Source: Formosa sp. Hel1_33_131
Lineage (GTDB): Bacteria > Bacteroidota > Bacteroidia > Flavobacteriales > Flavobacteriaceae
Direction: 5' to 3'
DNA: 32,000 nucleotides
NCBI RefSeq assembly: GCF_001735745.1
Contig: NZ_CP017260.1
Span: forward strand, 2,520,001 to 2,552,000
The notes under the pieces were generated by a model. The model did no database searches. It was given only the letters and a program-made list of their open reading frames with translations, and was not told the origin of the DNA. Shown one piece after another: positions 5,692 to 27,488 of this stretch. The translations under genes were made by a program, and so were the position numbers. Each line of letters starts with the position of its first letter. Position 1 is the first letter of the stretch.

Positions 5692-5757
5692 TTAAAATAA
5701 TTTAGTTTGAAGTTGTAGGAGTTGCAACGCAGTGATTCGTGTATTTACAAATTAAAC

Positions 5758-5898
5758 TCAGCTCGATTGTTTTCGTAGACTGCTGCATTTTTTACTGCAA
5801 TATTTGACGGATTCCCAGTTTTTCTCCCATTTCTTTCGCCATGTAAATGGACGTTGGCATTGGACGCAAACTTTGGTAGGGAGATTTGTTTTTTTCAA
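5758..5898 (-). CDS. DUF2256 zinc-ribbon-like small protein
   Basis: [28 protein letters not shown] is the DUF2256 signature. The track ORF (5758-5979, ATG start) overlaps the upstream gene by 68 nt. A TTG start at 5898 gives [11 protein letters not shown]..., 46 aa, a typical family length with no overlap. The start is uncertain and the stop is firm. Confidence 0.7.
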
Positions 5899-5911
5899 TT
5901 CGAATACGGCT

Positions 5912-8555: not shown

Positions 8556-8577
8556 AATTAAACAAATATTAACATTT
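8556..8577 (-). promoter_or_regulatory. Conserved 22-nt motif, copy B (identical to 4126-4147)
   Basis: Exact repeat. It lies 55 nt upstream of the TetR-like ATG (8501) and overlaps the last codons and stop of the MIP channel gene. Confidence 0.3.
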
Positions 8578-9228
8578 ATCATCACAACAATTGTCACTTT
8601 TGACAAGCTTACAACTAAAAACTGCAAGGAACATTCCAATAAAAGGTGCTGTAAGATACACCCATAAATGAGTGAAATTTCCAGAAGCAAGGGCAGGTGC
8701 TAAAGAACGAATGGGATTCATGGACGCTTTTGTTAAGGGGCCTGCAAACATGGCTTCTAGTAGAATGACACTTCCGACAGCAATCCCAGCAATGGGACCA
8801 ATTTCTTTACTTCCAGTTGAGACATTAATAATAACAACCATCAAGAAAAAGCTAAGCAGCAATTCTATAATAAAGACCTTCAAAGGTTCAATGTTAGGGA
8901 GTGTGGCTCCTAAATCACTTTCAGGAAAAAGAAACAGCAACACTAAGGAGGCAGCGAATGCTCCTATAAATTGCGCAACTATATATTTGGGAACTTCGTT
9001 CCAACTGAATTTTTTAGCCACTGCAAAGCCTACGGTCACTGCAGGATTAAAATGCGCCCCAGAGATATCTCCAAAAGCATAGATCATGGCCATTACAATA
9101 AGTCCCCAAGTGATGGCAACTCCTGGGTGGGTGATGGTGCCTCCAGTAAAATCATTGATCACCATGGCGCCACAACCACAAAAAATCATGCTAAAGGTTC
9201 CTATCGTTTCAGCGATGTATTTTTTCAT
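8569..9228 (-). CDS. MIP/aquaporin family channel
   Basis: Two half-helix boxes, HFNPAVT and SMNPIRS (the second box is NPI, not NPA). Six hydrophobic segments. Unusual C-terminal tail SDNCCDDKC. Confidence 0.9.
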   Translation of the reverse strand: MKKYIAETIGTFSMIFCGCGAMVINDFTGGTITHPGVAITWGLIVMAMIYAFGDISGAHFNPAVTVGFAVAKKFSWNEVPKYIVAQFIGAFAASLVLLFLFPESDLGATLPNIEPLKVFIIELLLSFFLMVVIINVSTGSKEIGPIAGIAVGSVILLEAMFAGPLTKASMNPIRSLAPALASGNFTHLWVYLTAPFIGMFLAVFSCKLVKSDNCCDDKC

Positions 9229-12700: not shown

Positions 12701-12892
12701 TTCATCCTTCCAAACACACAAGTAGGTGTCCGTGGAACATGGCGTTCATTAAATGAAAACTCGCCACGTTACTCACCTAATTTTGTGCCAGCTAACACAT
12801 TCCCACCAGTGCCTCCTATTAGTTCGGTAGGATTTCCTGACGGAAGTGAATGGGAAATTAGAACATACATACATATCAATATTGGAAAATAA
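9743..12892 (+). CDS. Secreted fusion protein: N-terminal clan GH-A (beta/alpha)8 glycosidase-like domain + about 620-aa C-terminal beta-barrel-like (putative outer-membrane) domain
   Basis: SPI signal peptide (LITTSAFA|QADK). GH-A motifs FMINGMNWDY, GVNVIRQY, LLGNENNYG (E172) and IMLTEFGAD (E277). The C-terminal part has many amphipathic G/Y/F/W-rich strands and no TM helices. No TonB box, plug or carboxypeptidase-regulatory motifs were recognised. Confidence 0.8.
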   Translation: MNQIMRNTFIRLILFLITTSAFAQADKVKVVNNEDGMKLVVNGEDFMINGMNWDYFPIGTNYSYSLWKQSDDVIKAALDAEMGLLKNMGVNVIRQYTGVQPKWIQYIYENYGIYTMLNHSFGRYGLTVNGGWVAVTDYRDPATQELLMSEATTLAEDYKDTPGLLMFLLGNENNYGLFWAGAETEDFPDEEEKRDFVGEERGRPMYKLMNDATIKMKSIDSSHPIAICNGDVLFIDIIAEECKDIDIFGTNMYRGSSFTDAFKTVKEKLDMPIMLTEFGADAFNAIENAEDQKMQAYYMVENWKDIYQNAAGLGKSENAIGGFTFQFSDGWWKFGQTKNLDIHDNNASWANGGYALDLAPGENNMNEEWFGICAKGPTNTRGLYTLYPRAAYYALKTAHQLNPYEEGVTPEFVTTHFENIQLMDAVLRARGDKAALGGSEKIKLSNLRAEFSTFNTGGTLITTPDNADPNTNGYPNELGFDHMQSYFIGVEGNPTSNLRANVNFNILGHVAENPIDEIFYENTGRSFEVTTDDGNVTISDPNRVKIYNAEFDWNAKEFNLRGFYRTGHYHWAYEGDLFNLYREANYGPNLDLYNGEISGIEFDAKGTLKGLKAAFGPQLWWGANPAILLKYGRNLGGWDVAAVYHEDIDDVGRAVTSIAIPLPKTRRVSLAVERQFGAFNFEIGGLWGGQPLNGREFQIAEGTTDNYIIYTDKINENDNWGAKAKLSYEKGAFKWYAQGASMGLVANGGSDQTQTFTGWKLKDSGSGNQNNFLSGFSYTFGDFQIAPNFLWQKPIVGAMPNDLNGGTGRLRNIQDDPFAVRGNRETTAGELLFSYDPTPGTWMYEWDNDRAEDAKFAFNLGFVFRHHPTAQDAAVGFLANRTSFAFPNAAPAQDLWEAHSRIVSKMTPEIGFIANLYAGNAQANGSDPRLIQRVGGDIRLIYNKLKLTHTFKINDWGPFDYHRDFNLTYPVQLMLDLSTTLGKPDWFILPNTQVGVRGTWRSLNENSPRYSPNFVPANTFPPVPPISSVGFPDGSEWEIRTYIHINIGK
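9821..10957 (+). other. Domain: clan GH-A TIM-barrel glycosidase-like module (GH2/GH5/GH158-type; family not resolvable by eye)
   Basis: Candidate acid/base Glu in GNEN (nt 10256-10258) and candidate nucleophile Glu in LTEFG (nt 10571-10573). They are 105 residues apart, as in retaining GH-A enzymes. Confidence 0.6.
11030..12889 (+). other. Domain: predicted large beta-barrel / all-beta region
   Basis: Alternating-polarity strands include LRANVNFNILG, FNLRGFYRTG, RVSLAVERQFGAFNFEIGGLWG, GAKAKLSYEKGAFKWYAQGASMG, FLSGFSYTFGDFQIAPNFLWQ, FAFNLGFVFRHH, VGGDIRLIYNKLKLTHTFKIN and the terminal EWEIRTYIHINIGK. Membrane-barrel status is inferred, not shown. Confidence 0.45.
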
Positions 12893-12904
12893 AAAACTGT
12901 AAAA

Positions 12905-14314
12905 ATGAAAAATATAAAATTTATGTATTCAAAAATTATGCTCCTCACGGGATTACTTTTTGTAATCACCATGAGTTGTGAGAGAGACATTTCTGATCAG
13001 GTAGAATTTGCACACTTATCTAAAACAGGTGAGATTTTCACAGATTCACCTATTGGACTTGGGAGTGATTTTTACTTTCCATACACAGGTTCAAAAGCAA
13101 CCGCTTGGTCAGTAGACGAAGGCGAAGGTTATGAAAGTTTTGCTTCCATGCGATTTGATGTGCCCAATGCAAATGATCCAGCAGGAAATTATGCAGGAGC
13201 CATATTTAGAGTTGATGGATCAGGACGTGACCTTACTGAATTTGATGCCTTAACCTTTTGGGCGAAAGCATCTCAAGGCGTTGTGATTGGTGAAGTAGGA
13301 TTTGGACAAGACTTTGGACTGAATAAATACCAAGTATCTGAAAACAATGTAAGTTTAAGTACCAACTGGCAAAAATTTGTGATTCCAATTCCAGATGCTT
13401 CAAAACTTTTTGATGAAAGAGGGATGTTTTGGTATTCGGCAGGAACCCAAAATACAGGTGGAAATGGTTATACGTTTTGGATTGATGAATTAAAGTTTGA
13501 AAAACTAGGAACCATCGGACAACCAAGACCCGCCATTTTAAATGGTAATGATGTTGTACAAGATGCCTTTTCAGGAATTGTTTTAGAATTAACAGGCTTA
13601 ACTCAAACCTTCAATTTGGGTTCTGGATTAAATAAAACAGTGAATGTCGCACCAAGTTATTTTGATTTTACATCTTCGGAACCAAGTTTGGCTTTCATAG
13701 ATGAATTTGGGAACATCTCTGTTAGTAGTGGTTCAGCTGTGATAACAGCGACTCTAGGAGGCGTAGAAGCAGAAGGCTCCATGACCATAAATGCAGTCGG
13801 TGCATTTGATGTAGCACCCACGCCAACAAGAGACCCGAGTGATGTGATTTCTATTTTTAGTGATAGTTATACAAACGTTCCAGTGGACTTTTTCAATGGT
13901 TACTGGGAACCTTGGCAAACAACACTGTCTTCTGATTTCGTAGTAGACGGTAACAACATGATCAACTACACTAATTTTAATTTTGTGGGAACTCAATTTG
14001 CCAACCCAACTGTGGATATTACAGATTATCCTAATTTACATGTAAATATCTACATTCCAGAAGAACCTGCCAATCTTGATTTTTTAATTACAGTGAGAGA
14101 TTTTGGGCCTGACCAAGCTGATGGTGGAGGTGATGATACATTCCAACAAATATTCTTTGATGGCGATGATTTTGAAGCAGGTACTTGGAGTACTTTAGAA
14201 GCTCAAATAACCTTGCCGACTCGAAATAATATGGGACTTATTATTTATGAAAACATTAATGGTTCTTCATTAAATGAACTGTATGTAGATAATATTTATT
14301 TTTATAAAAACTAG
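12905..14314 (+). CDS. Surface glycan-binding lipoprotein candidate: CBM-like domain + Ig-like (Big_2-type) domain + CBM-like domain
   Basis: Lipobox LFVITMS-C25 followed by the acidic ERDISD. Big_2-like segment SSEPSLAFIDEFGNISVSSGSAVITATLGGVEAEGSMTI. Beta-sandwich style ends FWIDELKFEKLG and LYVDNIYFYKN. Starts 12 nt after the barrel-fusion gene. Confidence 0.65.
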   Translation: MKNIKFMYSKIMLLTGLLFVITMSCERDISDQVEFAHLSKTGEIFTDSPIGLGSDFYFPYTGSKATAWSVDEGEGYESFASMRFDVPNANDPAGNYAGAIFRVDGSGRDLTEFDALTFWAKASQGVVIGEVGFGQDFGLNKYQVSENNVSLSTNWQKFVIPIPDASKLFDERGMFWYSAGTQNTGGNGYTFWIDELKFEKLGTIGQPRPAILNGNDVVQDAFSGIVLELTGLTQTFNLGSGLNKTVNVAPSYFDFTSSEPSLAFIDEFGNISVSSGSAVITATLGGVEAEGSMTINAVGAFDVAPTPTRDPSDVISIFSDSYTNVPVDFFNGYWEPWQTTLSSDFVVDGNNMINYTNFNFVGTQFANPTVDITDYPNLHVNIYIPEEPANLDFLITVRDFGPDQADGGGDDTFQQIFFDGDDFEAGTWSTLEAQITLPTRNNMGLIIYENINGSSLNELYVDNIYFYKN

Positions 14315-14341
14315 AGGATTATAAATTCAAAAAAACAAAAC

Positions 14342-15274
14342 ATGAATAAAATAAATAAATATAAGTTAAGGATTCAAACACTCGTGTTGATGTCTTTTCT
14401 TTTTGCATCATTTTTCACGATTTCCAGTTGTGATACAGACGAAACCCAAACGGTTGCCACGTTTACAAATTTAACGATGTCTGATGAGTTTGATGTTGAA
14501 GGTGCTCCTAATTCTGAAATTTGGAATTACGATACAGGAACAGGTATCGATGGTTGGGGTAATAATGAGTTGCAATATTATACAGACCGTTCAGAAAATG
14601 TAACCGTACAAAATGGACTGTTAGTAATTTCTGCGATTGAAGAAAATTATAACGGCTCCTCATTTACATCGGCAAAACTGGTTACCAAAGGAAAATTCTC
14701 TCAAGCCTATGGACGTTTTGAAGCACGTATTAAAGTTCCGGGAGGATCAGGTCTTTGGCCTGCATTTTGGCTCTTAGGAGAAAACGTCGATGTGGACGGA
14801 TGGCCTCAATGTGGTGAGATTGATATTATGGAGTACCGCAGACAAGAACCTACAAAAGTAAGCGGCTCTATACACGGACCAGGGTATTCTGGTTTAACAG
14901 ATCCACAGGGACAAGTGACCAAAAGTTACGACTTAGGAAATGACCGTTATGACGCAGGATTCCATGTGTTTGGAATTGAGTGGAGCCCTGATTACATCAA
15001 CTATTATATAGACGATGTATTGTACAATCAAATTACACCTTCTGATATTGAAGTCACACCAGCCGATGCTGTTTACATCCTAAACGATGGTGTTGCAGCG
15101 ACTGCTGATACCGAAGCAATTCCGGGGACTGATATTACTGGGGATTGGGTTTTTAACAAACCCTTCTATATCATTATTAATTTAGCTGTTGGAGGTAATT
15201 TCCCAGGAAATCCTGACAGTGGAGAGACGTTTCCACAAAACATGCTAGTAGATTACGTAAGAGTATATAAATAA
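14342..15274 (+). CDS. GH16 endo-beta-1,3-glucanase (laminarinase) lipoprotein
   Basis: GH16 catalytic motif GEIDIMEY (ExDxxE), plus WPAFWLLG and the MSDEFD start of the jelly-roll. Lipobox FTISS-C30-DTDE. Confidence 0.9.
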   Translation: MNKINKYKLRIQTLVLMSFLFASFFTISSCDTDETQTVATFTNLTMSDEFDVEGAPNSEIWNYDTGTGIDGWGNNELQYYTDRSENVTVQNGLLVISAIEENYNGSSFTSAKLVTKGKFSQAYGRFEARIKVPGGSGLWPAFWLLGENVDVDGWPQCGEIDIMEYRRQEPTKVSGSIHGPGYSGLTDPQGQVTKSYDLGNDRYDAGFHVFGIEWSPDYINYYIDDVLYNQITPSDIEVTPADAVYILNDGVAATADTEAIPGTDITGDWVFNKPFYIIINLAVGGNFPGNPDSGETFPQNMLVDYVRVYK

Positions 15275-15298
15275 TAAAAACAACTAATATAACAGACG

Positions 15299-17605
15299 AT
15301 GAAAAATTTATTTAAAATATTAAAAAAAGTTTCACTACTTATTTTAGCAATCAGTTTTATGGGTTGTGACGATGATGAAGCGGTTTTACCACAACTTACA
15401 GCTGGTTTTACACACACGATTAATGCAGATACTGGTACAGTCACCTTTATCAATACCTCAGTAAATGCCTCAACATACGCTTGGGATTTTGGAGATGAAA
15501 GTACTTCAACGCTTATTAATCCAGTAAACGTCTATGCAAACGGTACATACTTGGTGGTTTTAAAGTCCTCCAATGTCGCAGGAGCTTATGATATTTTTTC
15601 TGATGAGATTACAATTAATATTCCTGAAATCGCAACCTTACCAATTACGTTTGATGGTGTAAATACCAACTATGATGCAACCGTTTTTGATGGTACAAGT
15701 TTTGAGATTCTTACAAATCCAGATCTTTCAGGTACAAACGCAGTGGAATCTAATGTAGGAGCAGTTACAAACAGTGGTGCGACTTACGAAGGCTTGTTCT
15801 TTGAATTAGGGGCACCCGTAGATTTAACGACTGACAAGTCGATCAAAATGAATTTCTGGGCAAATGCACCAGTAAACGTTTTATTAAAACTTGAAGATGG
15901 TTCTGCAGCAAATGTAGAAGCTACAGCCAGTCATACAGGAACTGGTTGGGAAGAAATTATTTTCACTTTTAACTCTGCCGCGAGTTACTCACAACTTACC
16001 ATGTTTGTAGATGGTGCGGGAACAACCGATGGGACATTCTATTTTGATGATATTACACAAATAGTATCGCCTCCAACACCTTGTACAGCAGAAACAGTTG
16101 AATCAATTTCCGCTGCTGATTTGAATATAACATTTATGTCAGATCCAACGGCTAGTGTTGTTAATGATGGTGCTACATTTGAGTGGATAGACAATCCAGA
16201 TTTTGATAACGCAGTAAATACTTCTTGTAAAGTAGGGAAAATCACAAAATTAGGAAACAACCCTTGGGATAACAATCAAATTGTCTTAGATGCGAAATTG
16301 GATTTTAATGCCAATGAAGGTTTAAAAATGAAAGTTTGGTCTTCAAGACCAAACACTGAAGTTAGAATTAAACTTGAAGAAGATGGAACTCCAGCTACTA
16401 ATGTAGAAAAGTTTTTAACTACATCAGTTACTGATGGATGGGAGGAATTAAGCTTCGCTTTTACTAGTGTTGATAGTGACAAATACAATAAAGTGGTTCT
16501 TTTCTTTGATTTGAATGCAAACAACACAGATACTTATTATTTTGATGATTTGACATTATATGGAACAGGAACAGGTCCTGTAGTTTGTGATCCTGAAACA
16601 ACAGAGTCTTACAGTGCATCCAACTTAAACATGACGTTTCAATCCGATCCAACTGCAGACTTTATCACTGATGGTGCTAGTTTTTCATGGGTAGATAACC
16701 CAGACTTTGACAATACTGTAAACAGCTCTTGTAAAGTAGGTAAAGTCGTAAAAGCAAATAACAATGCTTGGGATAACAATCAATATGATTTAGACGCAAA
16801 ATTAGATTTTAATGCGAATACTGGCTTAAAAATTAAAGTATGGTCTGCAAGACCAAATACCGAAGTTAGATTAAAATTAGAAGAGATTGGAAATGCAGGT
16901 AATAATGTTGAGAAATTTTTCACAACTTCAGTAACAAGCGGATGGGAAGAATTGACGTTCCCTTTTACAGCTGCTGATAGTGGTAAATTTAATAAGCTTG
17001 TTATTTTCTTTGATTTAAATGCTAATAACACCGATACGTACTACTTTGACGACCTTAAGCTTTATGGTTCTGGCGGCGGTGGTGGCGGCGGTGGCGGTTC
17101 ATATAATCTTACGCTTCCTATTAATTTTGAGACAACAGGACATGGAGCAAGTTGGACTTGGAATGTTTTTGAAAATGATTCGAACCCACCAGTTGAATTC
17201 GTAGCAAATCCAAATGCATCAGGAATAAACACCTCAAGTACAGTGGCTAAAATCACGGCACTTCAAGCTGGACAACCTTATGTTGGTTGTGAAACCGCAC
17301 ATGGCGAAATGGGAATTACGTGGGATCTTTCTGCATCCAATGCGATCATTAAGATTATGGTTTACAAAACCGTAATCAGTGATGTTGGTATTAAACTAGT
17401 AAATACTACTAATGGCGCACAAGGAGAAATCAAAGTTCCAAACACTGTAATTAATGCATGGGAAGAATTGACATTTGATTTTACGAGTCGTATTGGAAAT
17501 GGATTAGATGGCTCTACAAATATTGATCAGATTGTTGTATTCCCTGATTTCAATGCAAGAACATCGGATAATGTAGTGTATTTCGATAACATTACGTTTC
17601 AATAA
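15299..17605 (+). CDS. PKD-domain lipoprotein with four CBM-like beta-sandwich modules (putative laminarin-binding surface protein)
   Basis: Lipobox SFMG-C23-DDDE. PKD motif TVTFINTS..YAWDFGDEST (about aa 33-108). Four modules each end in YFDD/YFDN (aa about 112-255, 262-429, 430-597 and 600-768). A G9 linker precedes the last module. Confidence 0.75.
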   Translation: MKNLFKILKKVSLLILAISFMGCDDDEAVLPQLTAGFTHTINADTGTVTFINTSVNASTYAWDFGDESTSTLINPVNVYANGTYLVVLKSSNVAGAYDIFSDEITINIPEIATLPITFDGVNTNYDATVFDGTSFEILTNPDLSGTNAVESNVGAVTNSGATYEGLFFELGAPVDLTTDKSIKMNFWANAPVNVLLKLEDGSAANVEATASHTGTGWEEIIFTFNSAASYSQLTMFVDGAGTTDGTFYFDDITQIVSPPTPCTAETVESISAADLNITFMSDPTASVVNDGATFEWIDNPDFDNAVNTSCKVGKITKLGNNPWDNNQIVLDAKLDFNANEGLKMKVWSSRPNTEVRIKLEEDGTPATNVEKFLTTSVTDGWEELSFAFTSVDSDKYNKVVLFFDLNANNTDTYYFDDLTLYGTGTGPVVCDPETTESYSASNLNMTFQSDPTADFITDGASFSWVDNPDFDNTVNSSCKVGKVVKANNNAWDNNQYDLDAKLDFNANTGLKIKVWSARPNTEVRLKLEEIGNAGNNVEKFFTTSVTSGWEELTFPFTAADSGKFNKLVIFFDLNANNTDTYYFDDLKLYGSGGGGGGGGGSYNLTLPINFETTGHGASWTWNVFENDSNPPVEFVANPNASGINTSSTVAKITALQAGQPYVGCETAHGEMGITWDLSASNAIIKIMVYKTVISDVGIKLVNTTNGAQGEIKVPNTVINAWEELTFDFTSRIGNGLDGSTNIDQIVVFPDFNARTSDNVVYFDNITFQ
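16082..17089 (+). repeat. Intragenic tandem duplication, 2 x 504 nt (two 168-aa CBM-like modules)
   Basis: Units 16082-16585 and 16586-17089 both start at a Cys codon. The hand alignment is gapless with 119/168 identical residues (71%). The antisense 83-aa ORFs at 16276-16527 and 16780-17031 mirror each other at the same 504-nt offset. Confidence 0.9.
17066..17101 (+). repeat. GGN simple-sequence tract encoding GSGGGGGGGGGS inter-domain linker
   Basis: ggttctggcggcggtggtggcggcggtggcggttca. This is a GC-rich island in AT-rich DNA. The antisense frame gives a poly-Pro artefact ORF. Confidence 0.9.
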
Positions 17606-17614
17606 TTAATAAAT

Positions 17615-17647
17615 AAGGCTAGGGAAAAATTATCTCTAGCCTTTTTA
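17615..17647 (+). terminator. Rho-independent terminator ending operon 1
   Basis: AAGGCTAG(GG)-loop-(CT)CTAGCCTT gives an 8-10 bp stem followed by TTTTTAT. It begins 10 nt after the stop codon at 17605. Confidence 0.6.
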
Positions 17648-17769
17648 TATTAAAATAGTCAATAGTTCAGCCAGAATTCATACAGGTAAGTTATCCGTAA
17701 AAGAAACGCTATAATTTTCGTTTATTAAAATAAATGAATTAAAACACGAATAAAAAGGTTATGATTAAG

Positions 17770-17798
17770 TTGTTTTTAACAAGCCTTTTTTATTTTTG
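17770..17798 (+). promoter_or_regulatory. Candidate Bacteroidota-type promoter for operon 2
   Basis: TATTTTTG (17791-17798) matches the -7 consensus TAnnTTTG. A TTG at 17770-17772 lies 18 nt upstream (-33-like). It is 114 nt before the ATG at 17912. Not validated. Confidence 0.25.
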
Positions 17799-17911
17799 AA
17801 ATTAGTATTTAAGTATTAAAAAAAACCAATCAACTCTAAGCAGTTAAAAGATATTAAAGAATTATAAAGCCTCAAAAAATCATAAATGGGGGTTTATTGA
17901 TAAAAAATTAA

Positions 17912-20900
17912 ATGACAAAGAAAGCTATTTTTTTAGGAAAAAATAAAGACGTGAATCAGGGTAAAGACATCGATGGAACCTTAGTCAACATTGACAACGA
18001 AGTCTATTATAAGATTTCGAATAGTGACAAAATGAGACCATTTTTCATGAGCATCGTTAGTGATTCAAATCACTGGATGTTTATTTCTAGTAATGGAAGT
18101 CTAACCGCTGGAAGAAAAAACTCTGAATTTGCATTATTTCCGTACTATACAGATGATAAAATCACGGAAGCAGCTGAAATCACAGGAAGTAAATCTATTT
18201 TCCAAGTAGTCAAAAATGATGAAGTTCATTTATGGGAACCTTTTTCGGATCGTTTTGCAGGAAAGTACAAAACCACTCGAAATTTATATAAAAACGAGTA
18301 TGGTAATAAAGTCTTGTTCGAAGAAATCAACCACGATTTAGAACTCACCTTTCAATACCAATGGAATTCTACAAACACCTTTGGATTTATAAAAAAATCG
18401 AAGCTTATCAATACTGCAACCTCTACTGTTGAAGTCAATGTATTGGATGGGATTCAAAACATTTTACCTTACGGCGTTGGTAGCGATTTACAAAATGCAA
18501 GTAGTAATTTAGTCGATGCCTATAAACGTAGTGAGTTAGAAAAAAGTTCAGGTTTAGGGATTTATGCTTTAAGCGCAATTATTGTAGATAAAGCAGAGCC
18601 TAGCGAAGCTCTAAAAGCAAATATTGTTTGGTCTTTAGGTTTAGACACTCCTAAATATTTACTCTCCTCCTTACAACTTGATAGCTTTAGAAAACAATAT
18701 GAAATTCAAGATGAGACGGATGTCAAAGCTGAAAAAGGCGCTTATTTTGTCAATTCTCAAATTGTATTAGCATCCCAAGAAGACAAAGAGTGGTTGCTTG
18801 TTGCAGAGGTGAATAAAAACCATTCCGCCATTGCAAAGTTGGTTAATAAAATTAAAACCAATGATGGTTTATGGGAATTGATAGACCAAAAAATTGAAAA
18901 AGGAACCACGCGTTTAATCGCCTTAAATGCGGCTTCTGATGGTTTACAGCTTTCCGCAGATAAATTTAGAGATACACGCCATTTCTCAAACACCTTGTTC
19001 AATATTATGAGAGGTGGGATTTTTGATAATAACTATCAAATTGAAAAATGGGATTTTAAAAATTACCTAGCAAAAGCCAATAAAAAAGTAGCAAGAACGA
19101 CAGAAGAAAATGTTGAAAAACTTCCTGAAAAGTTCACGCTTTCAGTGTTACAAGAACTCGCTCATCAAGTAGATGACACTAACTTTAGACGCCTTTGTTT
19201 CGAATACATGCCGTTAAAATTTAGCCGTCGTCATGGAGATCCGAGTCGTCCTTGGAATAAATTTTCAATCAACACCAAAAGTGAGATTGATGGTTCAAAA
19301 ATATTAGATTACGAAGGAAACTGGCGCGATATTTTCCAAAACTGGGAAGCATTGGCACATTCGTATCCTGCGTTTATTGAAAGTATGATCCATAAATTTT
19401 TAAACGCAACAACCTTTGATGGCTACAATCCATACCGTGTAACCAAAGGCGGATTTGATTGGGAAACTATTGAACCAGACGACCCTTGGTCGTACATCGG
19501 TTATTGGGGCGATCATCAAGTGATCTATTTACTCAAATTTTTAGAGTTTATTGAAAGCCACCAACCAGGTAAATTAGCAACTCTTTTTGATAAAGATTTA
19601 TTTGTCTATGCCAATGTTCCTTATAAGATCAAAAGCTACGACGCCTTGCTTGAAAATCCAAAAGATACCATTGAATTTGATGAAGCACTCGATCATAAAA
19701 TTAGAGAACAACGCGTAGAACTTGGAGCCGATGGTGCCCTACTTCGCGATGAGAATCGTTTTATTGTAAAAGTCAATTTCATTGAAAAAATACTAGCCAC
19801 CACTTTAGCAAAACTTTCAAACTTTATTCCAGAAGGTGGAATTTGGATGAATACGCAACGTCCTGAATGGAACGATGCCAACAATGCCTTGGTTGGTAGT
19901 GGGGTTTCTATGGTCACCTTGTATTATTTACGACGTTTCTTGAAATTCTTTGATACAGTCATAGTTCAATCGGACTTAGAAACCGTCGAAGTTTCTAAAG
20001 AACTCGTCACATTCTTTGATGCTATTTCAACGACCTTTAAAGATAACCAGAATTTACTATCCGGGCGTATCAATGATACAGACCGAAAAGTAATTTTAGA
20101 TGCCTTAGGAAATGCAGGAAGCAACTATAGAACTCAAATTTATAATGCCGCTTTTTCAGGAAGAAAAAGTGAACTATCTGTGAAGGATATAAAAGCATTT
20201 ATTGAGGTGAGTCTTCAGTATTTAGAGCACTCTATCGAAGTGAATAAACGAGAAGATAATTTATACCATGCATATAATTTAATGACCGTCAACGAAAACA
20301 ACAGCGTTTCAATTTCGTATTTAGATGAAATGTTAGAAGGTCAGGTTGCCGTTTTAAGTTCAAAATATTTATCAACCAAACAGTCCTTATCTGTTTTGGA
20401 TGCAATGAAAAACAGCAAGCTTTTCCGTCCAGACCAATACAGTTATTTATTATATCCGAATAAAGAATTAAAAGGATTCATTGGGCGTAACACAATTTCA
20501 GCAGCAGCTGTGTCATCGTCTAAATTATTAGGACAACTCGTAAGCGATAAAAATGTTCAAATTATAGAGAAAGATGTCAATGGTGATTACCATTTCAATG
20601 GAAATTTTAAAAATGCCAACGATTTAAAAGCGGCTTTAATCGAACTTTCAGGAACTTCTTACGAAGCACTCGCTCATTCAGAAACTCCAAAAATACTACA
20701 GATATTTGAAGAAGTATTTAACCATAAAGCCTTTACAGGTCGTTCAGGTACCTTTTATGGCTATGAAGGATTAGGATCCATCTATTGGCACATGGTGTCG
20801 AAATTGCAATTAGCAGTTTTGGAAAGCTGTAATTCAGCCATTGAATCGGAAGCTGATGCAGTGGATGTAGGGAATTTATTAGACCACTATTACGAAATAA

Positions 20901-21385
20901 ATGCAGGAATTGGTGTGCACAAATCACCAAAACTCTATGGAGCATTTCCAACCGATGCCTATTCGCATACACCGGCAGGAAAAGGTGCACAACAACCAGG
21001 AATGACGGGACAGGTAAAAGAAGATATTTTATCACGTTTTGGCGAACTAGGAGTGGTAGTTTCAGAAGGAACACTAGGATTCAATCCACGTTTACTACGA
21101 GGAAATGAGTTTTTGAAAGAAAGTAACATCTTTCATTACATCGCGATTCCTACTAAAAAAGACAGCATTTTGGTTTCAGAAGGTTCACTTTGTTTTACCT
21201 ACTGTCAAGTGCCTATTATATACACCATAGCAGAAGAAGACAGTTTAACGGTTGACTTCAGCAATGGAACCGCAAAAACGTTTAATAGCTTAAGCTTAGA
21301 TACAGAAACAAGCGAACACGTATTTAATCGTAATGGTGAAGTCGTTCAACTAAATGTACATATTAAAAAGAGTCGTTTAAAATAA
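17912..21385 (+). CDS. Cytoplasmic GH94-like (clan GH-Q) glycoside phosphorylase, most consistent with GH149-type beta-1,3-glucan phosphorylase
   Basis: 1157 aa with no signal peptide. RPEWNDANNAL (D655, nt 19874-19876) resembles the ADWNDCLN catalytic-Asp motif of GH94 phosphorylases. GNWRDIFQNWE resembles the RDxxQD phosphate/sugar-binding motif. Size and the GH16/GH17/GH30 context match what I recall for bacterial GH149. Confidence 0.6.
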   Translation: MTKKAIFLGKNKDVNQGKDIDGTLVNIDNEVYYKISNSDKMRPFFMSIVSDSNHWMFISSNGSLTAGRKNSEFALFPYYTDDKITEAAEITGSKSIFQVVKNDEVHLWEPFSDRFAGKYKTTRNLYKNEYGNKVLFEEINHDLELTFQYQWNSTNTFGFIKKSKLINTATSTVEVNVLDGIQNILPYGVGSDLQNASSNLVDAYKRSELEKSSGLGIYALSAIIVDKAEPSEALKANIVWSLGLDTPKYLLSSLQLDSFRKQYEIQDETDVKAEKGAYFVNSQIVLASQEDKEWLLVAEVNKNHSAIAKLVNKIKTNDGLWELIDQKIEKGTTRLIALNAASDGLQLSADKFRDTRHFSNTLFNIMRGGIFDNNYQIEKWDFKNYLAKANKKVARTTEENVEKLPEKFTLSVLQELAHQVDDTNFRRLCFEYMPLKFSRRHGDPSRPWNKFSINTKSEIDGSKILDYEGNWRDIFQNWEALAHSYPAFIESMIHKFLNATTFDGYNPYRVTKGGFDWETIEPDDPWSYIGYWGDHQVIYLLKFLEFIESHQPGKLATLFDKDLFVYANVPYKIKSYDALLENPKDTIEFDEALDHKIREQRVELGADGALLRDENRFIVKVNFIEKILATTLAKLSNFIPEGGIWMNTQRPEWNDANNALVGSGVSMVTLYYLRRFLKFFDTVIVQSDLETVEVSKELVTFFDAISTTFKDNQNLLSGRINDTDRKVILDALGNAGSNYRTQIYNAAFSGRKSELSVKDIKAFIEVSLQYLEHSIEVNKREDNLYHAYNLMTVNENNSVSISYLDEMLEGQVAVLSSKYLSTKQSLSVLDAMKNSKLFRPDQYSYLLYPNKELKGFIGRNTISAAAVSSSKLLGQLVSDKNVQIIEKDVNGDYHFNGNFKNANDLKAALIELSGTSYEALAHSETPKILQIFEEVFNHKAFTGRSGTFYGYEGLGSIYWHMVSKLQLAVLESCNSAIESEADAVDVGNLLDHYYEINAGIGVHKSPKLYGAFPTDAYSHTPAGKGAQQPGMTGQVKEDILSRFGELGVVVSEGTLGFNPRLLRGNEFLKESNIFHYIAIPTKKDSILVSEGSLCFTYCQVPIIYTIAEEDSLTVDFSNGTAKTFNSLSLDTETSEHVFNRNGEVVQLNVHIKKSRLK

Positions 21386-21400
21386 AATTTGTAAGATATT

Positions 21401-22693
21401 ATGAGAGCAACAAAGCATATATTAATTTTAATACTCCTTGTTTTTCTTGTAATATCTTGTAAAAATAAGCAATCAAATACGCAGAACCCGAACCAACAAA
21501 ATCAAAACGAAGTGACAGCTAAAGACATCTTAGGAAATTCAAAATATTTAGCGATCTCTTACGGAGGATATCGAAAAAAATCTCGAGATTTTCAACCCTC
21601 AATTGAAGAGTTAAAAGAAGATATGAAAATTCTTCATGCGATGAATATTAGAATATTGCGCACCTATAATGTGCGTTTGGCGCATACGTCTAATATTTTA
21701 AAAGCCATTCGGGAGTTGAAAAATGAAGATGCCAATTTCGAAATGTATATGATGGTTGGTGCTTGGATCGATTGTAAAAATGCTTGGACCGATCAACCGT
21801 TGAATCACCATGAAGAAAGCGAGAACAATGCCTCTGAGATTGATCGTGCAGTCGCTTTGGCACAAGAATTTCCAGATATTGTAAAAGTCATTGCCGTTGG
21901 AAATGAAGCCATGGTCAAATGGGCCGCCTCTTATTTTGTGCAACCCGCTGTGATTTTAAAATGGGTAAACCATTTACAAGCTTTAAAGAAAAAAGGAGAC
22001 CTATCCAAAGACTTATGGATCACCAGTTCCGATAATTTTGCTTCTTGGGGTGGGGGAGATCCTCAATACCATGTGGAAGATCTCACGAAATTAATCGAGG
22101 CTGTGGATTATCTATCTGTACATACCTATCCAATGCACGATACACATTACAATCCTATTTTTTGGGGCGTTTTCGGGGACGAAACCGAATTGTCAAGTTT
22201 GAAACGCATTGATATTGCCATGAACCGAGCCAAAACTTATGCCGTTTCACAAAGCGATAGTGTGGCAAGTTATATAAAGAGCTTGGGCATTAACAAACCA
22301 ATCCATATTGGTGAAACAGGTTGGGCAAGTTTTTCTAACGGTTATTACGGGGCTAAAGGCTCTAAAGCAACCGATGAGTACAAGGAGGCTATTTTTTACA
22401 ACCATATTCGTGAATGGACTAATGAAGCTAATATGTCATGCTTCTATTTTGAAGCCTTTGATGAACCATGGAAAGATGCGCATAACTCAGGAGGTTCTGA
22501 AAACCATTTTGGTTTATTTACGGTGGATGGTAAAGCAAAATACGTTCTCTGGGATTTGGTAGATAAAGGCGTTTTTGAAGGATTGACACGTGGCGGGAAT
22601 CCCATCACCAAAACCTATAATGGAAATAAAGAAGCACTATTCCTTGAGGTTGAATTGCCTCCGGTAAAAAAAGAAATCACAAAGAACCATTAA
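21401..22693 (+). CDS. GH17 beta-1,3-glucanase lipoprotein
   Basis: Lipobox LVIS-C20-KNKQSN with a Q/N-rich linker. VIAVGNEAMV (acid/base Glu) and IHIGETGWAS (nucleophile Glu) are present. FEAFDEPWK is typical of GH17. Confidence 0.85.
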   Translation: MRATKHILILILLVFLVISCKNKQSNTQNPNQQNQNEVTAKDILGNSKYLAISYGGYRKKSRDFQPSIEELKEDMKILHAMNIRILRTYNVRLAHTSNILKAIRELKNEDANFEMYMMVGAWIDCKNAWTDQPLNHHEESENNASEIDRAVALAQEFPDIVKVIAVGNEAMVKWAASYFVQPAVILKWVNHLQALKKKGDLSKDLWITSSDNFASWGGGDPQYHVEDLTKLIEAVDYLSVHTYPMHDTHYNPIFWGVFGDETELSSLKRIDIAMNRAKTYAVSQSDSVASYIKSLGINKPIHIGETGWASFSNGYYGAKGSKATDEYKEAIFYNHIREWTNEANMSCFYFEAFDEPWKDAHNSGGSENHFGLFTVDGKAKYVLWDLVDKGVFEGLTRGGNPITKTYNGNKEALFLEVELPPVKKEITKNH

Positions 22694-22694
22694 T

Positions 22695-24182
22695 ATGAAA
22701 CGTTTAAAAATACATCATTTTTTAATTTTATTCGCAATGCTCACAGCATGTACATCTAAAGAACCTTTGCAAGTAACCGTTTATGAAACGTCTGCGAATG
22801 GTAACAAGTTAACCGAAGTATCAGAATTTAGTACTTCTGAAAACCCTTCGAAAATTCAACTGAGTCCGGAACAAATATTCCAAACCATCACTGGTTTTGG
22901 GGGCTCATTTACGGAATCTTCTGCGTACTTACTAAATCGTTTGAGTAAAAAAAATAGAACTAAAATTATCGACGCTTACTTTAGTGAAAAAGGTGCCAAC
23001 TATTCATTGACCCGTACACATATTAGTTCTTGTGATTTTTCATTAAATAACTATACCTATGCGCCTATAGCGGATGATTTTGAGCTAAAACATTTCAGCA
23101 TCATAGAAGATATGGACGATTTAATCCCTATGATAAAAGACGCAATGGCCGTCTCTGAAGATGGATTTAAAATCATAGCTTCTCCATGGACCGCACCGCC
23201 TTGGATGAAAGATAATAAAGAATATGTTGGTGGTAAATTACTACCAGAATACTACGATACCTTTGCCTTATTTTTTTCTAAATACATAGATTATTATAAA
23301 GCTGAAGGCATTGATATTTGGGGTTTAACCCCCGTCAATGAGCCTCATGGAAATGGCAATAACTGGGAGAGTATGCATTTCTCTCCAGAAGAGGAAACCG
23401 ATTTTGTTCAAAACCATTTAGGACCAAAACTGGAAGCGGACGGAAAAGGAGCAATCAATATTTTAGGCTATGATCAAAACAGAGCTGGATTAAAAGAATG
23501 GGTCGATGTGATGTTTGAAAATGAAGCAGCTTCCAAGTATTATGCAGGAACCGCCATTCATTGGTATGAAAGTACTTATGATTTTTTCCCTAAAGCATTA
23601 CAATATGCTCATGACAAAGCACCTAACAAATACTTAATAGAAACCGAAGGCTGTGTAGATTCTGAAATTCCAAAATGGCAAGATGACAAATGGTATTGGT
23701 CTAAAGAGGCAACGGATTGGGGATTTGATTGGCGAGAGCAAGAAAAAAAATATTTACATCCAAAATACGCCCCTGTCAACAGATATGCCAGAGATATTAT
23801 TGGTTGCTTAAATAACTGGGTTGACGGTTGGGTCGATTGGAATATGGTATTGGACAGACAGGGTGGTCCAAACTGGTTTAAAAACTGGTGTGTTGCTCCT
23901 GTGATTGTAGATTCCGATAACGATGAAGTCTATTTTACGCCTTTGTATTATACGATGGCACATTTTAGTAAATACATACGACCCGGCGCCAAAGTGATTG
24001 GTCTGGATCATTCGGATACCGACCTACAAGTCACCGCTGCACAAAACCCTGATGGAACCATTGCAGTTGTGGTATTCAATGAAGGAACAACATTAAAAAC
24101 CTTTGAACTTTCTTTAGGAGAATCTTCAACAATAATAGCCATACAACCACAAGCCATACAAACGATTGTATTACCAAACTAA
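22695..24182 (+). CDS. GH30 family glycosidase lipoprotein (probable exo-beta-1,6-glucanase debranching laminarin)
   Basis: Lipobox MLTA-C19-TSKE. GFGGSFTESSAY, WGLTPVNEP (acid/base) and YLIETEGC (nucleophile) are GH30 motifs. Substrate is inferred from context. Confidence 0.85.
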   Translation: MKRLKIHHFLILFAMLTACTSKEPLQVTVYETSANGNKLTEVSEFSTSENPSKIQLSPEQIFQTITGFGGSFTESSAYLLNRLSKKNRTKIIDAYFSEKGANYSLTRTHISSCDFSLNNYTYAPIADDFELKHFSIIEDMDDLIPMIKDAMAVSEDGFKIIASPWTAPPWMKDNKEYVGGKLLPEYYDTFALFFSKYIDYYKAEGIDIWGLTPVNEPHGNGNNWESMHFSPEEETDFVQNHLGPKLEADGKGAINILGYDQNRAGLKEWVDVMFENEAASKYYAGTAIHWYESTYDFFPKALQYAHDKAPNKYLIETEGCVDSEIPKWQDDKWYWSKEATDWGFDWREQEKKYLHPKYAPVNRYARDIIGCLNNWVDGWVDWNMVLDRQGGPNWFKNWCVAPVIVDSDNDEVYFTPLYYTMAHFSKYIRPGAKVIGLDHSDTDLQVTAAQNPDGTIAVVVFNEGTTLKTFELSLGESSTIIAIQPQAIQTIVLPN

Positions 24183-24215
24183 CAAACTAACACACAAACT
24201 AAAAACCAACACATC

Positions 24216-25580
24216 ATGTCTAACACTCTTAACAAAGTCCCCTTAGGTCAAAAGATTGCCTTTGGCTTAGGAATGCTTGCCAACCAAATGTTTCCAGCAG
24301 CACTTGGAATTTTTATGGTCGTTCTCGTACAAAATTTAGGATTTCCAGGTTGGATGTGGGGAATCATATACTTTTTTCCGAGAATATTTGATTCTTTCAC
24401 AGATCCAATAATGGGGTTTATCTCAGATAACACCAAATCTAAATGGGGGAGACGTAGGCAGTATGTGTTTATTGGTGCGATTGTGATGGGAATTTCCTTT
24501 GCAATTATGTGGCAATTATATATAGATAGTGGCGTAGATTATAATTTTGTGTATTTTATGTTTTGGTCCTTTATCTTTTATTTAGGGCTCACTATTTTTA
24601 GTGTTCCTTACGTAGCGATGGGCTATGAGATGAGTGATGATTTTCATGAACGTACAAGCATCATGGCGGTTGCACAATGGATCGGCCAGTGGGCATGGGT
24701 TATAGCTCCATGGTTTTGGGTGATTATGTATATTAACGGCGATGATGGATGGTTTGAAACTGCAGAAGAAGCGACACGGACTTTAGCTATTTGGGTTGGT
24801 GTTATTTTAATGTTTGTGGCGATGGTTCCTGCACTATTTATCAAGAGTAAATCGACTTTAGACGAAGATTATGCCGATTTATCACTTAGTAATATTAAAG
24901 GAAGTTTTAAAGAAATCAAGTTAGGATTTCAAGAAGCGTTGAAAATTAAGCCGTTCCGTAAATTATGTATTTCAACTTTTCTAATTTTTAATGCCTTCAA
25001 TACGGTTGCTACATTTACCTTTTTTGTCATTGTATATCAGTTATTTAATGGAGATGCAGAAGCTGCAAATGCGGGATACTGGCCTTCGTTATTTGGATGT
25101 TTAGGGGCGTTGTCCACAACCTTTATCGTCATTCCGATTGTCACTAGGATGTCTCGTAAGCTAGGAAAGAAAAATGCATTTTTATGGTCTCAAGGGATTT
25201 CTATAATAGGGTACATACTCCTTTGGTTTTTATTGATTCCAGGAAAACCCTATATGTTTATTTTCGCCCTTCCTTTCTTCTCCTTTGGAATAGGAAGTTT
25301 ATTTACATTGATGATGTCCATGACTTCAGATGTAATTGATTTAGATGAATTAAATACAGGAAAACGAAGAGAAGGTATTTTTGGCGCTATTTATTGGTGG
25401 ATGGTCAAATTTGGTTTTGCAATTGCTGGAGCTTTGAGTGGAGTCATTCTATCCGTTATTGGTTTTCAAGAAGGCATTGCCTCTACGGAACAAGAAGGGG
25501 CTATCATTGGTTTGCGTGTATTCTTTTCGGGTTTCCCAATATTAGGAACTCTAATCGCTATGTGGATTATGCGTGACTAT
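24216..25580 (+). other. Domain: GPH/MFS transporter module (12 TM)
   Basis: The TM segments are arranged 6+6 around a charged central loop (KSKSTLDEDYADLSLSNIKGSFKEIK). Confidence 0.8.
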
Positions 25581-26564
25581 GATCTTACAGAAGAAAAAGC
25601 GGTAAAAATCAGTGCTGAACTAGCAAAACGAAAAGAGAAACCAACCTCTTTTTATCAAACAAATAAGTTAGCATCCTTACTCGCTTCAGGAATACAAATT
25701 GATTCGACTTCGGATACTGATTTCACTTCAAAATCGGATGCGGATATTAAAGCCCTGTTTTCAGAAACTTTAAATAAGGGTCTGCACGGCATGTGTTTTA
25801 GCCCGTATTTAGAAGGACAAAACATTGGAAATCAGTTATCGGAATCTCAAATCAGTCAACGTATGGATGTCATTGCACCTTACACTCAATGGGTGCGTTC
25901 ATTCTCCTGTACTGAAGGGAACGAGCATACACCTAAAATTGCCCACGAAAAACATTTAAAAACAATGGTGGGTGCATGGATCGGAAGTGATAAAGCTCAG
26001 AACGAAAAAGAGCTCAACACCTTAATCAAACTTGGAAAATCGGGGTTTGTAGATATCGCAGTTGTAGGGAATGAAACCTTGATGCGTGAAGAATTAACAG
26101 AAGAAGAATTGATTGCGTATATAAACCGTGTCAAACGCTCCCTACCAGGAATTCCTGTGGGTTATGTGGATGCCTATTACCAATTTGTAGAACGCCCTAA
26201 GCTGATTGATGCTTGTGACGTTATTTTAGCTAATTGCTATCCGTTTTGGGAAGGCTGTAGTATTGAGCAATCAGCAACGTATTTAAAGCAAATGTATGCC
26301 GTCACACAACAAGTAGCCAATGGGAAGCCTGTTATTATTACAGAAACAGGCTGGCCAAACCAAGGAGATCACACAAAAGATGCGGAACCTTCAGAAAACA
26401 ATGCGATGAAATATTTTATAGATACTGCCAATTGGGCGGGACAAAATGAAGTACCACTATTCTATTTCTCCTCATTTGATGAGTCATGGAAAGTACATCA
26501 CGAAGGAGATGTTGGAGCACGCTGGGGACTTTGGGATAAGAATGAGAATTTAAAATTTCAATAA
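24216..26564 (+). CDS. Fusion protein: 12-TM GPH/MFS-type sugar:cation symporter + C-terminal cytoplasmic GH17 domain
   Basis: A single uninterrupted 782-aa ORF. GPH motif RIFDSFTDPIMGFISD. I counted 12 hydrophobic segments in aa 1-455. Linker is aa 456-515. The GH17 part carries VVGNETLM (E620, nt 26073-26075) and IITETGWPN (E710, nt 26343-26345). Confidence 0.85.
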   Translation: MSNTLNKVPLGQKIAFGLGMLANQMFPAALGIFMVVLVQNLGFPGWMWGIIYFFPRIFDSFTDPIMGFISDNTKSKWGRRRQYVFIGAIVMGISFAIMWQLYIDSGVDYNFVYFMFWSFIFYLGLTIFSVPYVAMGYEMSDDFHERTSIMAVAQWIGQWAWVIAPWFWVIMYINGDDGWFETAEEATRTLAIWVGVILMFVAMVPALFIKSKSTLDEDYADLSLSNIKGSFKEIKLGFQEALKIKPFRKLCISTFLIFNAFNTVATFTFFVIVYQLFNGDAEAANAGYWPSLFGCLGALSTTFIVIPIVTRMSRKLGKKNAFLWSQGISIIGYILLWFLLIPGKPYMFIFALPFFSFGIGSLFTLMMSMTSDVIDLDELNTGKRREGIFGAIYWWMVKFGFAIAGALSGVILSVIGFQEGIASTEQEGAIIGLRVFFSGFPILGTLIAMWIMRDYDLTEEKAVKISAELAKRKEKPTSFYQTNKLASLLASGIQIDSTSDTDFTSKSDADIKALFSETLNKGLHGMCFSPYLEGQNIGNQLSESQISQRMDVIAPYTQWVRSFSCTEGNEHTPKIAHEKHLKTMVGAWIGSDKAQNEKELNTLIKLGKSGFVDIAVVGNETLMREELTEEELIAYINRVKRSLPGIPVGYVDAYYQFVERPKLIDACDVILANCYPFWEGCSIEQSATYLKQMYAVTQQVANGKPVIITETGWPNQGDHTKDAEPSENNAMKYFIDTANWAGQNEVPLFYFSSFDESWKVHHEGDVGARWGLWDKNENLKFQ
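25761..26561 (+). other. Domain: GH17 module fused to transporter C-terminus
   Basis: Gapless alignment to the downstream 302-aa GH17 at a 927-nt offset, with 156/258 identical residues (about 60%) by hand count. Confidence 0.85.
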
Positions 26565-26579
26565 TAAAACTACAGTACT

Positions 26580-27488
26580 ATGTCATTTAAAGAAGGTCAA
26601 CAATTTTCGCTAAAAAAAATCGATCAACCCTACGAATCTGGAGTTAATTTCACGAAACTATCTACAGAAGGTTTAGAAGAATTATGGAAACATACCTTAA
26701 ACAACGGAATGCACGGTTTGTGTTTTAGTATGTATGAAGACGGCCAAGGGCCTGGTAATAAAATTACAGAACATCAGGTTGATAGACGTATGCAAGTGAT
26801 CAAGCCTTACACCAAATGGGTGCGCTCATTTTCGTGTATTGAAGGCAATGAATTCATCCCTCGCATGGCGCACAAACACGGCATTAACACCTTGGTTGGT
26901 GCTTGGTTGGGTGATGACTTAGAAAAAAACGAAGAAGAACTAGAAGCCTTAATTGCATTGGCAAAAGAAGGCTGTGTAGATATAGCTGCCGTTGGCAATG
27001 AAGTGATGTATAGAGAAGAACTCACAGAAGCACAGTTGTTAGAATACATCCTTAGAGTAAAAGAAGCATTGCCCGGAATTCCAGTAGGCTATGTGGACGC
27101 TTATTATGAGTTTACACAGCGACCAAAAATCGCAAAAGCTTGTGATGTCATTTTAGCCAATTGCTATCCCTATTGGGAAGGCTGTAGCCAAGAAGACTCC
27201 TTAAATCACATTCAAAAAATGTTTGGCGAAGCAGTTGATGCGGCACAAGGAAAAAAAGTAATAATTACTGAATCTGGCTGGCCGAGTGAAGGCGGCAGTT
27301 TAAGAGGGGCGTTTTCATCTAAAGAAAATGCAATGCGCTATTTTATAAATGTCCAAAAATGGTCTAAAGAAGCCAATATAGATCTATTTTATTTCTCCTC
27401 CTTTGATGAATCATGGAAAGTGGGCACCGAAGGCGATGTTGGTGCCTATTGGGGTCTGTGGGATAAAAATGAGAAGTTGAAGTTTTAG
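26580..27488 (+). CDS. GH17 family protein, soluble, no signal peptide (cytoplasmic paralog of the fused domain)
   Basis: AAVGNEVMY and IITESGWPS catalytic motifs, plus FYFSSFDESWK. The N-terminus MSFKEGQQFSLKKIDQ is hydrophilic. Confidence 0.85.
   Translation: MSFKEGQQFSLKKIDQPYESGVNFTKLSTEGLEELWKHTLNNGMHGLCFSMYEDGQGPGNKITEHQVDRRMQVIKPYTKWVRSFSCIEGNEFIPRMAHKHGINTLVGAWLGDDLEKNEEELEALIALAKEGCVDIAAVGNEVMYREELTEAQLLEYILRVKEALPGIPVGYVDAYYEFTQRPKIAKACDVILANCYPYWEGCSQEDSLNHIQKMFGEAVDAAQGKKVIITESGWPSEGGSLRGAFSSKENAMRYFINVQKWSKEANIDLFYFSSFDESWKVGTEGDVGAYWGLWDKNEKLKF

Follow-up and report, generated by a model that had tools for sequence, protein, structure and literature searches.

The window analysed here, a stretch of 32,000 nucleotides from Formosa sp. 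Hel1_33_131 (contig NZ_CP017260.1, positions 2,520,001 to 2,552,000 of the forward strand), carries a laminarin gene cluster that includes one open reading frame (ORF) joining a sugar transporter of the major facilitator superfamily (MFS) to a family 17 glycoside hydrolase (GH17) domain (Table 1). The ORF is a single unbroken ATG-to-TAA frame of 782 amino acids, and an exact-sequence look-up showed 100% identity to AOR29491.1 / WP_069677648.1, "sugar transporter, MFS family [Formosa sp. Hel1_33_131]". In the supplementary tables of Unfried et al. (2018, ISME J 12:2894; PMC6246565), AOR29491 is FORMB_24740, assigned to the cytoplasmic membrane with 12 transmembrane helices, while AOR29492 is FORMB_24750, assigned to the cytoplasm and lacking a signal peptide. 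Since AOR29491 and AOR29492 link to FORMB_24740 and FORMB_24750, the window locus is laminarin polysaccharide utilization locus (PUL) 2 of "Formosa B", and the gene order GH149 - GH17A - GH30 - MFS-GH17 - GH17 matches FORMB_24710 to FORMB_24750. With sequence, locus and PUL 2 gene order all identical, the ORF is the already published and biochemically characterised fusion FbGH17B (FORMB_24740) and adds no new entity; the novelty implied by a first-pass annotation, made from the letters of the window and a list of its ORFs, falls away, as the same protein from the same strain was published in 2018 (PMC6246565).

FbGH17B was previously shown to be laminarin-induced and enriched in the membrane proteome, and its recombinant GH17 domain to be an exo-β-1,3-glucosidase that converts the oligosaccharides generated by FbGH30 and FbGH17A to glucose (PMC6246565). 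The MFS-GH17 fusion was called common in marine Flavobacteriia in the same study, and was later found in most "variant 1" laminarin PULs, including those of gammaproteobacterial SAR92, Luminiphilus and SAR86 metagenome-assembled genomes (MAGs) (Sidhu et al., 2023). Allahgholi et al. (2024; PMC11005184) list FbGH17B as AOR29491.1 and give 53% identity to the transglycosylase MlGH17B.

Table 1. Features of the fusion ORF and its gene cluster, with positions counted from the first nucleotide of the window.
Feature	Position	Strand	Basis
Whole ORF, MFS-GH17 fusion FbGH17B	24216..26564	+	Exact match to AOR29491.1; locus tag via supplementary table of PMC6246565
Cation:sugar symporter domain of GPH/MFS_2 type (residues 1-452) with 12 transmembrane helices and an N-terminus predicted to be cytoplasmic	24216..25571	+	Pfam, NCBIfam, AlphaFold2, MelB match
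D59...T62-D63 inside RIFDSFTDP	24390..24404	+	MelB alignment, codons checked
Predicted cytoplasmic tail helix EEKAVKISAELAKRKEK (459-474) and S/T/D-rich linker (475-500)	25572..25715	+	AlphaFold2, MelB alignment
GH17 module, residues 501-782: N-terminal helix 508-520 and (β/α)8 barrel	25716..26561	+	AlphaFold2, 4wtp match
E620, catalytic acid/base by position (VVGNE)	26073..26075	+	Aligned with VGSE of RmBgt17A; codon checked
M623, position of the transglycosylation-linked Tyr	26082..26084	+	PMC11005184; motif survey
E710, catalytic nucleophile by position (IITETGWP)	26343..26345	+	Aligned with the mutated Glu of 4wtr; codon checked
Free GH17 FORMB_24750 / AOR29492.1 ("glycoside hydrolase, GH17 family"), 302 aa, without signal peptide, Tyr144	26580..27488	+	Exact match, N-terminus
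GH30 exo-β-1,6-glucosidase FORMB_24730 (FbGH30), lipoprotein-type signal	22695..24182	+	Pfam GH30 5.4e-78; function from PMC6246565
GH17A endo-laminarinase FORMB_24720 (FbGH17A, PDB 6fcg), lipoprotein signal peptide	21401..22693	+	Pfam; 430-aa 6fcg chain; function from PMC6246565
GH149 β-1,3-glucan phosphorylase FORMB_24710, without signal peptide	17912..21385	+	NF058639, 1805.6 bits (cut-off 1150)
FORMB_24680, 469 aa, lipoprotein signal peptide	12905-14314	+	N-terminus; no Pfam or NCBIfam family match
GH2-like protein FORMB_24670, 1049 aa, type I signal peptide	9743-12892	+	Weak GH2_C match, 9.7e-6

Both halves of the protein were recognised by family profiles and by fold. Pfam MFS_2 covers residues 16-459 (6.9e-66, 223 bits against a cut-off of 27), and Pfam GH17 (PF00332) matches the C-terminus with 37.5 bits (gathering score 28.2), the aligned part being the C-terminal third of the profile. 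The AlphaFold2 model, computed from an input alignment of 26 fusion sequences (mean predicted local distance difference test score 80.2, predicted TM-score 0.61), places 12 transmembrane helices within residues 10-452, followed by a tail helix (459-474) and a linker (475-507), together about 50 aa, a further helix (508-520) and a (β/α)8 barrel (523-782). When the halves were compared with solved structures using Foldseek, the transporter matched MelB (target TM-score 0.83) and the GH17 half matched 4wtp/4wtr (TM-score 0.83, root-mean-square deviation 2.7 Å over 273 columns), while among the solved chains none covered both domains together. A phmmer search against PDB sequences likewise aligned residues 546-778 to 4wtp, the Rhizomucor miehei GH17 β-1,3-glucanosyltransferase RmBgt17A (3.7e-29), with E620 and E710 on its catalytic Glu pair and E710 opposite the Glu-to-Ala site of the active-site mutant 4wtr. 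RmBgt17A is thereby the closest solved structure, and it has the catalytic Glu residues and a Trp-Glu pair in common with the window domain; it is, however, a secreted fungal transferase with Tyr102, whereas the window domain has Met623 and is a reported exo-hydrolase. In an alignment of 26 fusion proteins (A2), E620, E710 and the Trp-Glu pair W678/E679 (in PFWEG) are invariant, and D59, T62 and D63 are each at least 90% conserved.

The first-pass annotation had described one uninterrupted 782-aa ORF in which a GPH/MFS-type transporter with 12 hydrophobic segments and the motif RIFDSFTDPIMGFISD is joined to a complete GH17 domain that keeps both catalytic Glu contexts. Frame, Pfam domains and AlphaFold2 model all agree with this description: the model has the 12 transmembrane helices, the motif RIFDSFTDPIMGFISD was found at residues 56-71, and VVGNE (E620) and IITETGW (E710) lie at the codons indicated and align with 4wtp. 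An internal ATG in the linker from which a free GH17 might be translated was ruled out, there being no Met in residues 453-522 (only ATG starts were considered).

The same annotation had asked whether sequencing or assembly might have joined two separate genes. The 120 best homologues listed, which come from independent assemblies (NCBI, JGI, ENA, Logan and Tara), all carry both Pfam domains at 76-100% identity, and almost all are 777-792 aa long; their variation in length, as well as that among the linkers of 34 genomic homologues, is due to whole-codon insertions and deletions within the linker, which preserve the reading frame. The exact sequence is present on seven contigs, including a 2,735,158-bp genome, and proteomics identified FORMB_24740 in the membrane fraction (PMC6246565). 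We furthermore scanned one genome per species with a pattern derived from the free GH17 alignment, obtaining at least 545 relatives, and analysed the best 80 loci. Immediately upstream of the free GH17 gene, 34 of these 80 loci encode an intact MFS-GH17 ORF of 775-835 aa and 40 an unfused MFS of 465-546 aa; the fusion is interrupted by a contig end at two loci and split at one, and at three no upstream MFS was found, the contig ending there in two of them. Among the 40 unfused MFS genes, ten share 60-74% identity with that of the window. The fused arrangement was seen in Dokdonia, Polaribacter, Flaviramulus, Lutibacter, Nonlabens and Patiriisocius, as well as in several Flavobacterium species from fresh water and in MAGs of Saprospiraceae. 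The single locus that would speak for an artefact is the split one, with an MFS of 465 aa and a GH17 fragment of 203 aa; against it stand conserved two-domain homologues from many independent assemblies, intact fused ORFs in 34 species genomes, frame-preserving linkers and the proteomic detection, so that an artefactual fusion is practically excluded.

At the split locus (L033, positions 4926-6987, Saprospiraceae MAG JADJNF010000001.1) the broken fusion lies upstream of an intact free GH17 gene, and the break could reflect a frameshift, a decayed pseudogene or an indel error in long reads. Other architectures were also encountered. Four 50%-cluster representatives (P0277, P0280, P0286 and P0293) are GPH transporters, 34-45% identical to the window MFS, in which about 175-375 additional residues separate helices 3 and 4, in a loop predicted to be periplasmic; the insert of P0293 is a WD40-type β-propeller. 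Such inserts represent another means of equipping this transporter family with a soluble domain. P0297 (796 aa) is a GH30-GH17 fusion without a transporter and reads VGNEVLLR, with no Tyr, at the acid/base site. P0282 (763 aa) is an MFS_2-GH17 protein, also without the Tyr (LGNETLLR), and as its MFS is only about 23% identical to that of the window it may have been fused independently.

The one point left over by the literature is the membrane face on which the GH17 domain lies. No stated topology of FbGH17B was found in the main text and the searched supplement passages of PMC6246565, figures aside, nor in PMC11005184, PMC13188888, PMC10108472 or PMC11345257; the text of the FbGH17B paper is silent on the membrane face, and the wording of Unfried et al. 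(2018) implies hydrolysis first and uptake afterwards (PMC6246565). The in silico evidence obtained here, in contrast, points to the cytoplasmic face. Because the transporter has an even number of helices and a predicted cytoplasmic N-terminus, the GH17 domain probably lies in the cytoplasm, and this reasoning, which the first-pass annotation had followed from the even helix number, holds up and is rather more precise than the text in print. With the loops delimited by the helix boundaries of the AlphaFold2 model, Lys and Arg residues number 21 in the predicted cytoplasmic loops and 1 in the predicted periplasmic loops. The alignment with MelB (4m64) runs nearly end to end over query residues 10-479 (10-481 in the phmmer search) and includes the C-terminal tail, opposite which RDYDLTEEKAVKISAELAKRKEK of the query is placed, and both termini of MelB are cytoplasmic. 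A 13th transmembrane segment was sought after residue 460 and none was found, Kyte-Doolittle means over 19 residues peaking at 1.06 beyond residue 480, inside a barrel strand; an extra segment that would move the GH17 domain to the periplasm was ruled out on this basis.

It could nevertheless be argued that the same known protein carries its GH17 domain in the periplasm, where oligosaccharides would be converted to glucose outside the inner membrane before the MFS imports the glucose. Such a placement would suit the in vitro cascade of GH30, GH17A and GH17B, which ends with glucose, and the enrichment in the membrane fraction is compatible with either face (PMC6246565). The 12 helices and the 21:1 bias, however, put both termini inside, the homology to MelB continues through the C-terminal tail, and there is no additional hydrophobic segment to take the domain across the membrane. 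In addition, the nearest free relatives, FORMB_24750 and MlGH17B, have no signal peptide, and if glucose alone entered the cell, the cytoplasmic GH149 phosphorylase and the free GH17 would be left without substrate. We therefore consider a periplasmic GH17 domain unlikely.

The first-pass annotation had also regarded GH17 enzymes as classically extracellular and a cytoplasmic, membrane-tethered copy as unusual, which was overstated, as MlGH17B and FORMB_24750 are likewise predicted to be cytoplasmic. NdvB-type cyclic β-1,3-glucan synthases such as Glt1 of Pseudomonas aeruginosa are biosynthetic enzymes in which GH17 is fused to a GT2 synthase. They are a precedent for a bacterial GH17 within a larger, multi-domain, membrane-associated protein acting on intracellular β-1,3-glucan. 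Glt1 is listed as 'cyclic β-1-3-glucan synthase' with about 28% identity to FbGH17B (PMC11005184).

The likeness to MelB bears on the transporter half as well. MelB (PDB 4m64, 7l16) and the window transporter have the 12-helix MFS fold in common and align over nearly their full length (TM-score 0.83), and the Asp pair of RIWDAINDP in MelB is conserved in helix II as D59/D63 of RIFDSFTDP. The MelB residues aligned with D59, T62 and D63 are D55, N58 and D59 of its cation-binding site, and the match of D59/D63 to this Asp pair is consistent with cation coupling. On the other hand, MelB is only about 18% identical to the window transporter and has no enzyme domain.

With regard to activity, the third residue after the acid/base Glu largely sets the fused domains apart from the free copies. 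It is Tyr in all free copies, both genomic (86/86) and metagenomic (133/133), whereas fused domains have Leu, His, Tyr or Met in genomes and Met, Leu or His in the metagenome set (n=129); among the 34 intact fused domains of the genome set, eight retain the Tyr. In the window the fused domain has M623 (VGNETLMR) and the free copy Y144 (VGNEVMYR). The aglycone-site Tyr tied to transglycosylation in MlGH17B (Tyr136) and RmBgt17A (Tyr102) was reported to be Met in FbGH17B, and the Trp-Glu pair Trp191/Glu192 of MlGH17B to be conserved (PMC11005184). Cleavage or transglycosylation had been proposed for the incoming oligosaccharide; the former agrees with the release of glucose (PMC6246565), while the latter is disfavoured by the change from Tyr to Met623. 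The further proposal that products are handed to the phosphorylase is doubtful, since the reported product is glucose, which is no substrate for phosphorolysis; more likely, GH149 and the fused domain draw on the same imported oligosaccharides, either in competition or by sharing them.

A fused GH17 that in vivo is not mainly a hydrolase, carrying out disproportionation or transglycosylation like MlGH17B or regulating the transporter as a gate that binds sugar, would be in line with the 53% identity to MlGH17B (PMC11005184), with the conserved W678/E679 pair and with the Tyr retained in some of the genomic fused domains. The recombinant domain, however, was reported to release glucose (PMC6246565), position 623 is Met here and Met, Leu or His in every one of the 129 metagenomic fused proteins, and the invariance of both catalytic Glu residues argues against a purely binding role, leaving a mainly non-hydrolytic function very unlikely.

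The comparison with other loci provides a possible origin for the fused domain. In the laminarin PUL of Muricauda lutaonensis (PMC11005184, PMC13188888) the same order, GH2 - GH16 - PKD - GH149 - GH17A - GH30 - MFS - GH17B, is found, but MFS and GH17 are separate genes, unlike the fusion of the window. MlGH17B is a β-1,3-glucanosyltransglycosylase that keeps Tyr136, and FORMB_24750, with Tyr144, looks like its counterpart and probably corresponds to it; relative to the M. lutaonensis locus, the fused domain of the window is an extra, diverged copy. A free copy accompanies every fused locus in the 80-locus set, again indicating that the fused domain is an additional one. In the window, the fused domain and its paralogue, the downstream free GH17, are 58% identical over 281 aa without gaps, and mean identity is 60% among fused domains and 75.5% among free copies. 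By neighbour-joining, 35 fused domains formed one split from all free copies (bootstrap 100/100) and grouped with a few 294-296-aa "second" free copies (bootstrap 73/100). These data fit a scenario in which a cytoplasmic enzyme of the MlGH17B type was duplicated once, after which one copy would have been fused to the transporter and have drifted towards hydrolysis, the last part resting on PMC11005184. A third GH17B-type gene, encoding 294-296 aa, was observed at six loci (L005, L006, L045, L058, L072 and L079), directly 3' of the 302-aa free copy in five of them and about 3.5 kb farther on in L058; it is these sequences that group with the fused clade.

The neighbouring gene products fit a cytoplasmic GH17 domain, as GH149 and the free GH17 have no predicted signal peptide, while the other six cluster proteins have one: type I in the GH2-like protein, and lipoprotein signals in the 469-aa protein, GH16, the PKD protein, GH17A and GH30. 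The GH149 family profile NF058639 aligns from residue 18 of that protein. In family scans of the cluster ORFs, the MFS-GH17 fusion was the sole inner-membrane transporter found. Because a cytoplasmic phosphorylase and a cytoplasmic GH17 need chains with a degree of polymerization of 2 or more inside the cell, we infer that the MFS imports oligosaccharides and not glucose.

Taken as a whole, the data are best explained, with a probability that we put at roughly three in four, by the known FbGH17B in which a symporter imports oligosaccharides and a tethered cytoplasmic GH17 domain trims them to glucose. The periplasmic lipoproteins GH30 and GH17A would debranch and endo-cleave laminarin to short β-1,3-gluco-oligosaccharides, as demonstrated for the enzymes in vitro (PMC6246565), and the 12-helix GPH-type symporter would then import these by means of the cation gradient. 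On the cytoplasmic face, the GH17 domain, held by a flexible linker of about 30 residues, would trim the incoming chains to glucose by the exo-β-1,3-glucosidase activity measured in vitro (PMC6246565), with free FORMB_24750 and the GH149 phosphorylase presumably using imported chains in parallel. A plausible benefit of the tether is that instant removal of the imported substrate would keep its internal concentration low. We lean slightly towards a fuller account, in which the cytoplasmic GH17 domain arose once by duplication of the downstream free, transglycosylase-type GH17 and subsequently lost the Tyr, and in which tethered exo-GH17, free GH17 and GH149 form a three-enzyme cytoplasmic module.

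Several observations weigh against parts of this interpretation. The top NCBIfam match of the transporter, the GPH cation symporter family TIGR00792, reached 183.8 bits and thus stays under the trusted cut-off of 231.35, and no transport assay was found in the literature; by its profile scores, the transporter belongs to the MFS_2/GPH-like group, outside any named equivalog. In the alignment, MelB K18 and D19, which we take to be sugar-binding residues under this numbering, are replaced by N23 and Q24, and the sugar specificity would therefore differ from that of MelB. The linker is modelled with low confidence by AlphaFold2, such that the arrangement of the two domains is not reliably predicted, and the trees behind the single duplication are neighbour-joining only, unrooted and without an outgroup. 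Finally, GH149, a member of the proposed cytoplasmic module, is tabulated with a PsortB prediction of "OM", and the subproteome data and passages of the supplement suggest that it may be tethered to the surface (PMC6246565), although a phosphorylase outside the cytoplasm would be odd.

Were the GH17 domain indeed cytoplasmic, the published order of hydrolysis followed by uptake of the product would be reversed. The membrane side of the enzyme decides whether the cargo of the transporter is glucose or oligosaccharides, whether the fusion serves as a sink for product and so maintains a steep inward gradient of oligosaccharide, and how carbon is split between hydrolysis to glucose and ATP-saving phosphorolysis to glucose-1-phosphate. 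Within the marine carbon cycle, the turnover of laminarin represents a large flux, and the fusion is abundant in bloom-associated Flavobacteriia (PMC6246565) as well as in some Gammaproteobacteria (Sidhu et al., 2023).

No match to a SusC/TonB-dependent receptor or to SusD was detected in the nine cluster proteins (9743-27488) or in the ten flanking ORFs scanned, and hence uptake across the outer membrane must use receptors encoded elsewhere, such as those of PUL 1 and PUL 3 (PMC6246565). FORMB_24670 and FORMB_24680 were among the most strongly laminarin-induced proteins (PMC6246565), and Sidhu et al. (2023) write such PULs with a 'GH0' member, that is, an unclassified glycoside hydrolase. The GH30 ORF begins with MKRLKIHHFLILFAMLTAC, a lipoprotein-type signal, whereas FORMB_24730 is tabulated as cytoplasmic and without a signal peptide, yet treated as periplasmic in the text (PMC6246565); the start codon in the deposited record, or else the prediction, may be wrong. 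A gene for a MIP/aquaporin-family channel (8569-9228, minus strand) is transcribed divergently from the cluster and lies some 500 bp upstream of it, with genes for a TetR-type regulator, an ABC1 kinase-like protein and a flavin reductase beside it.

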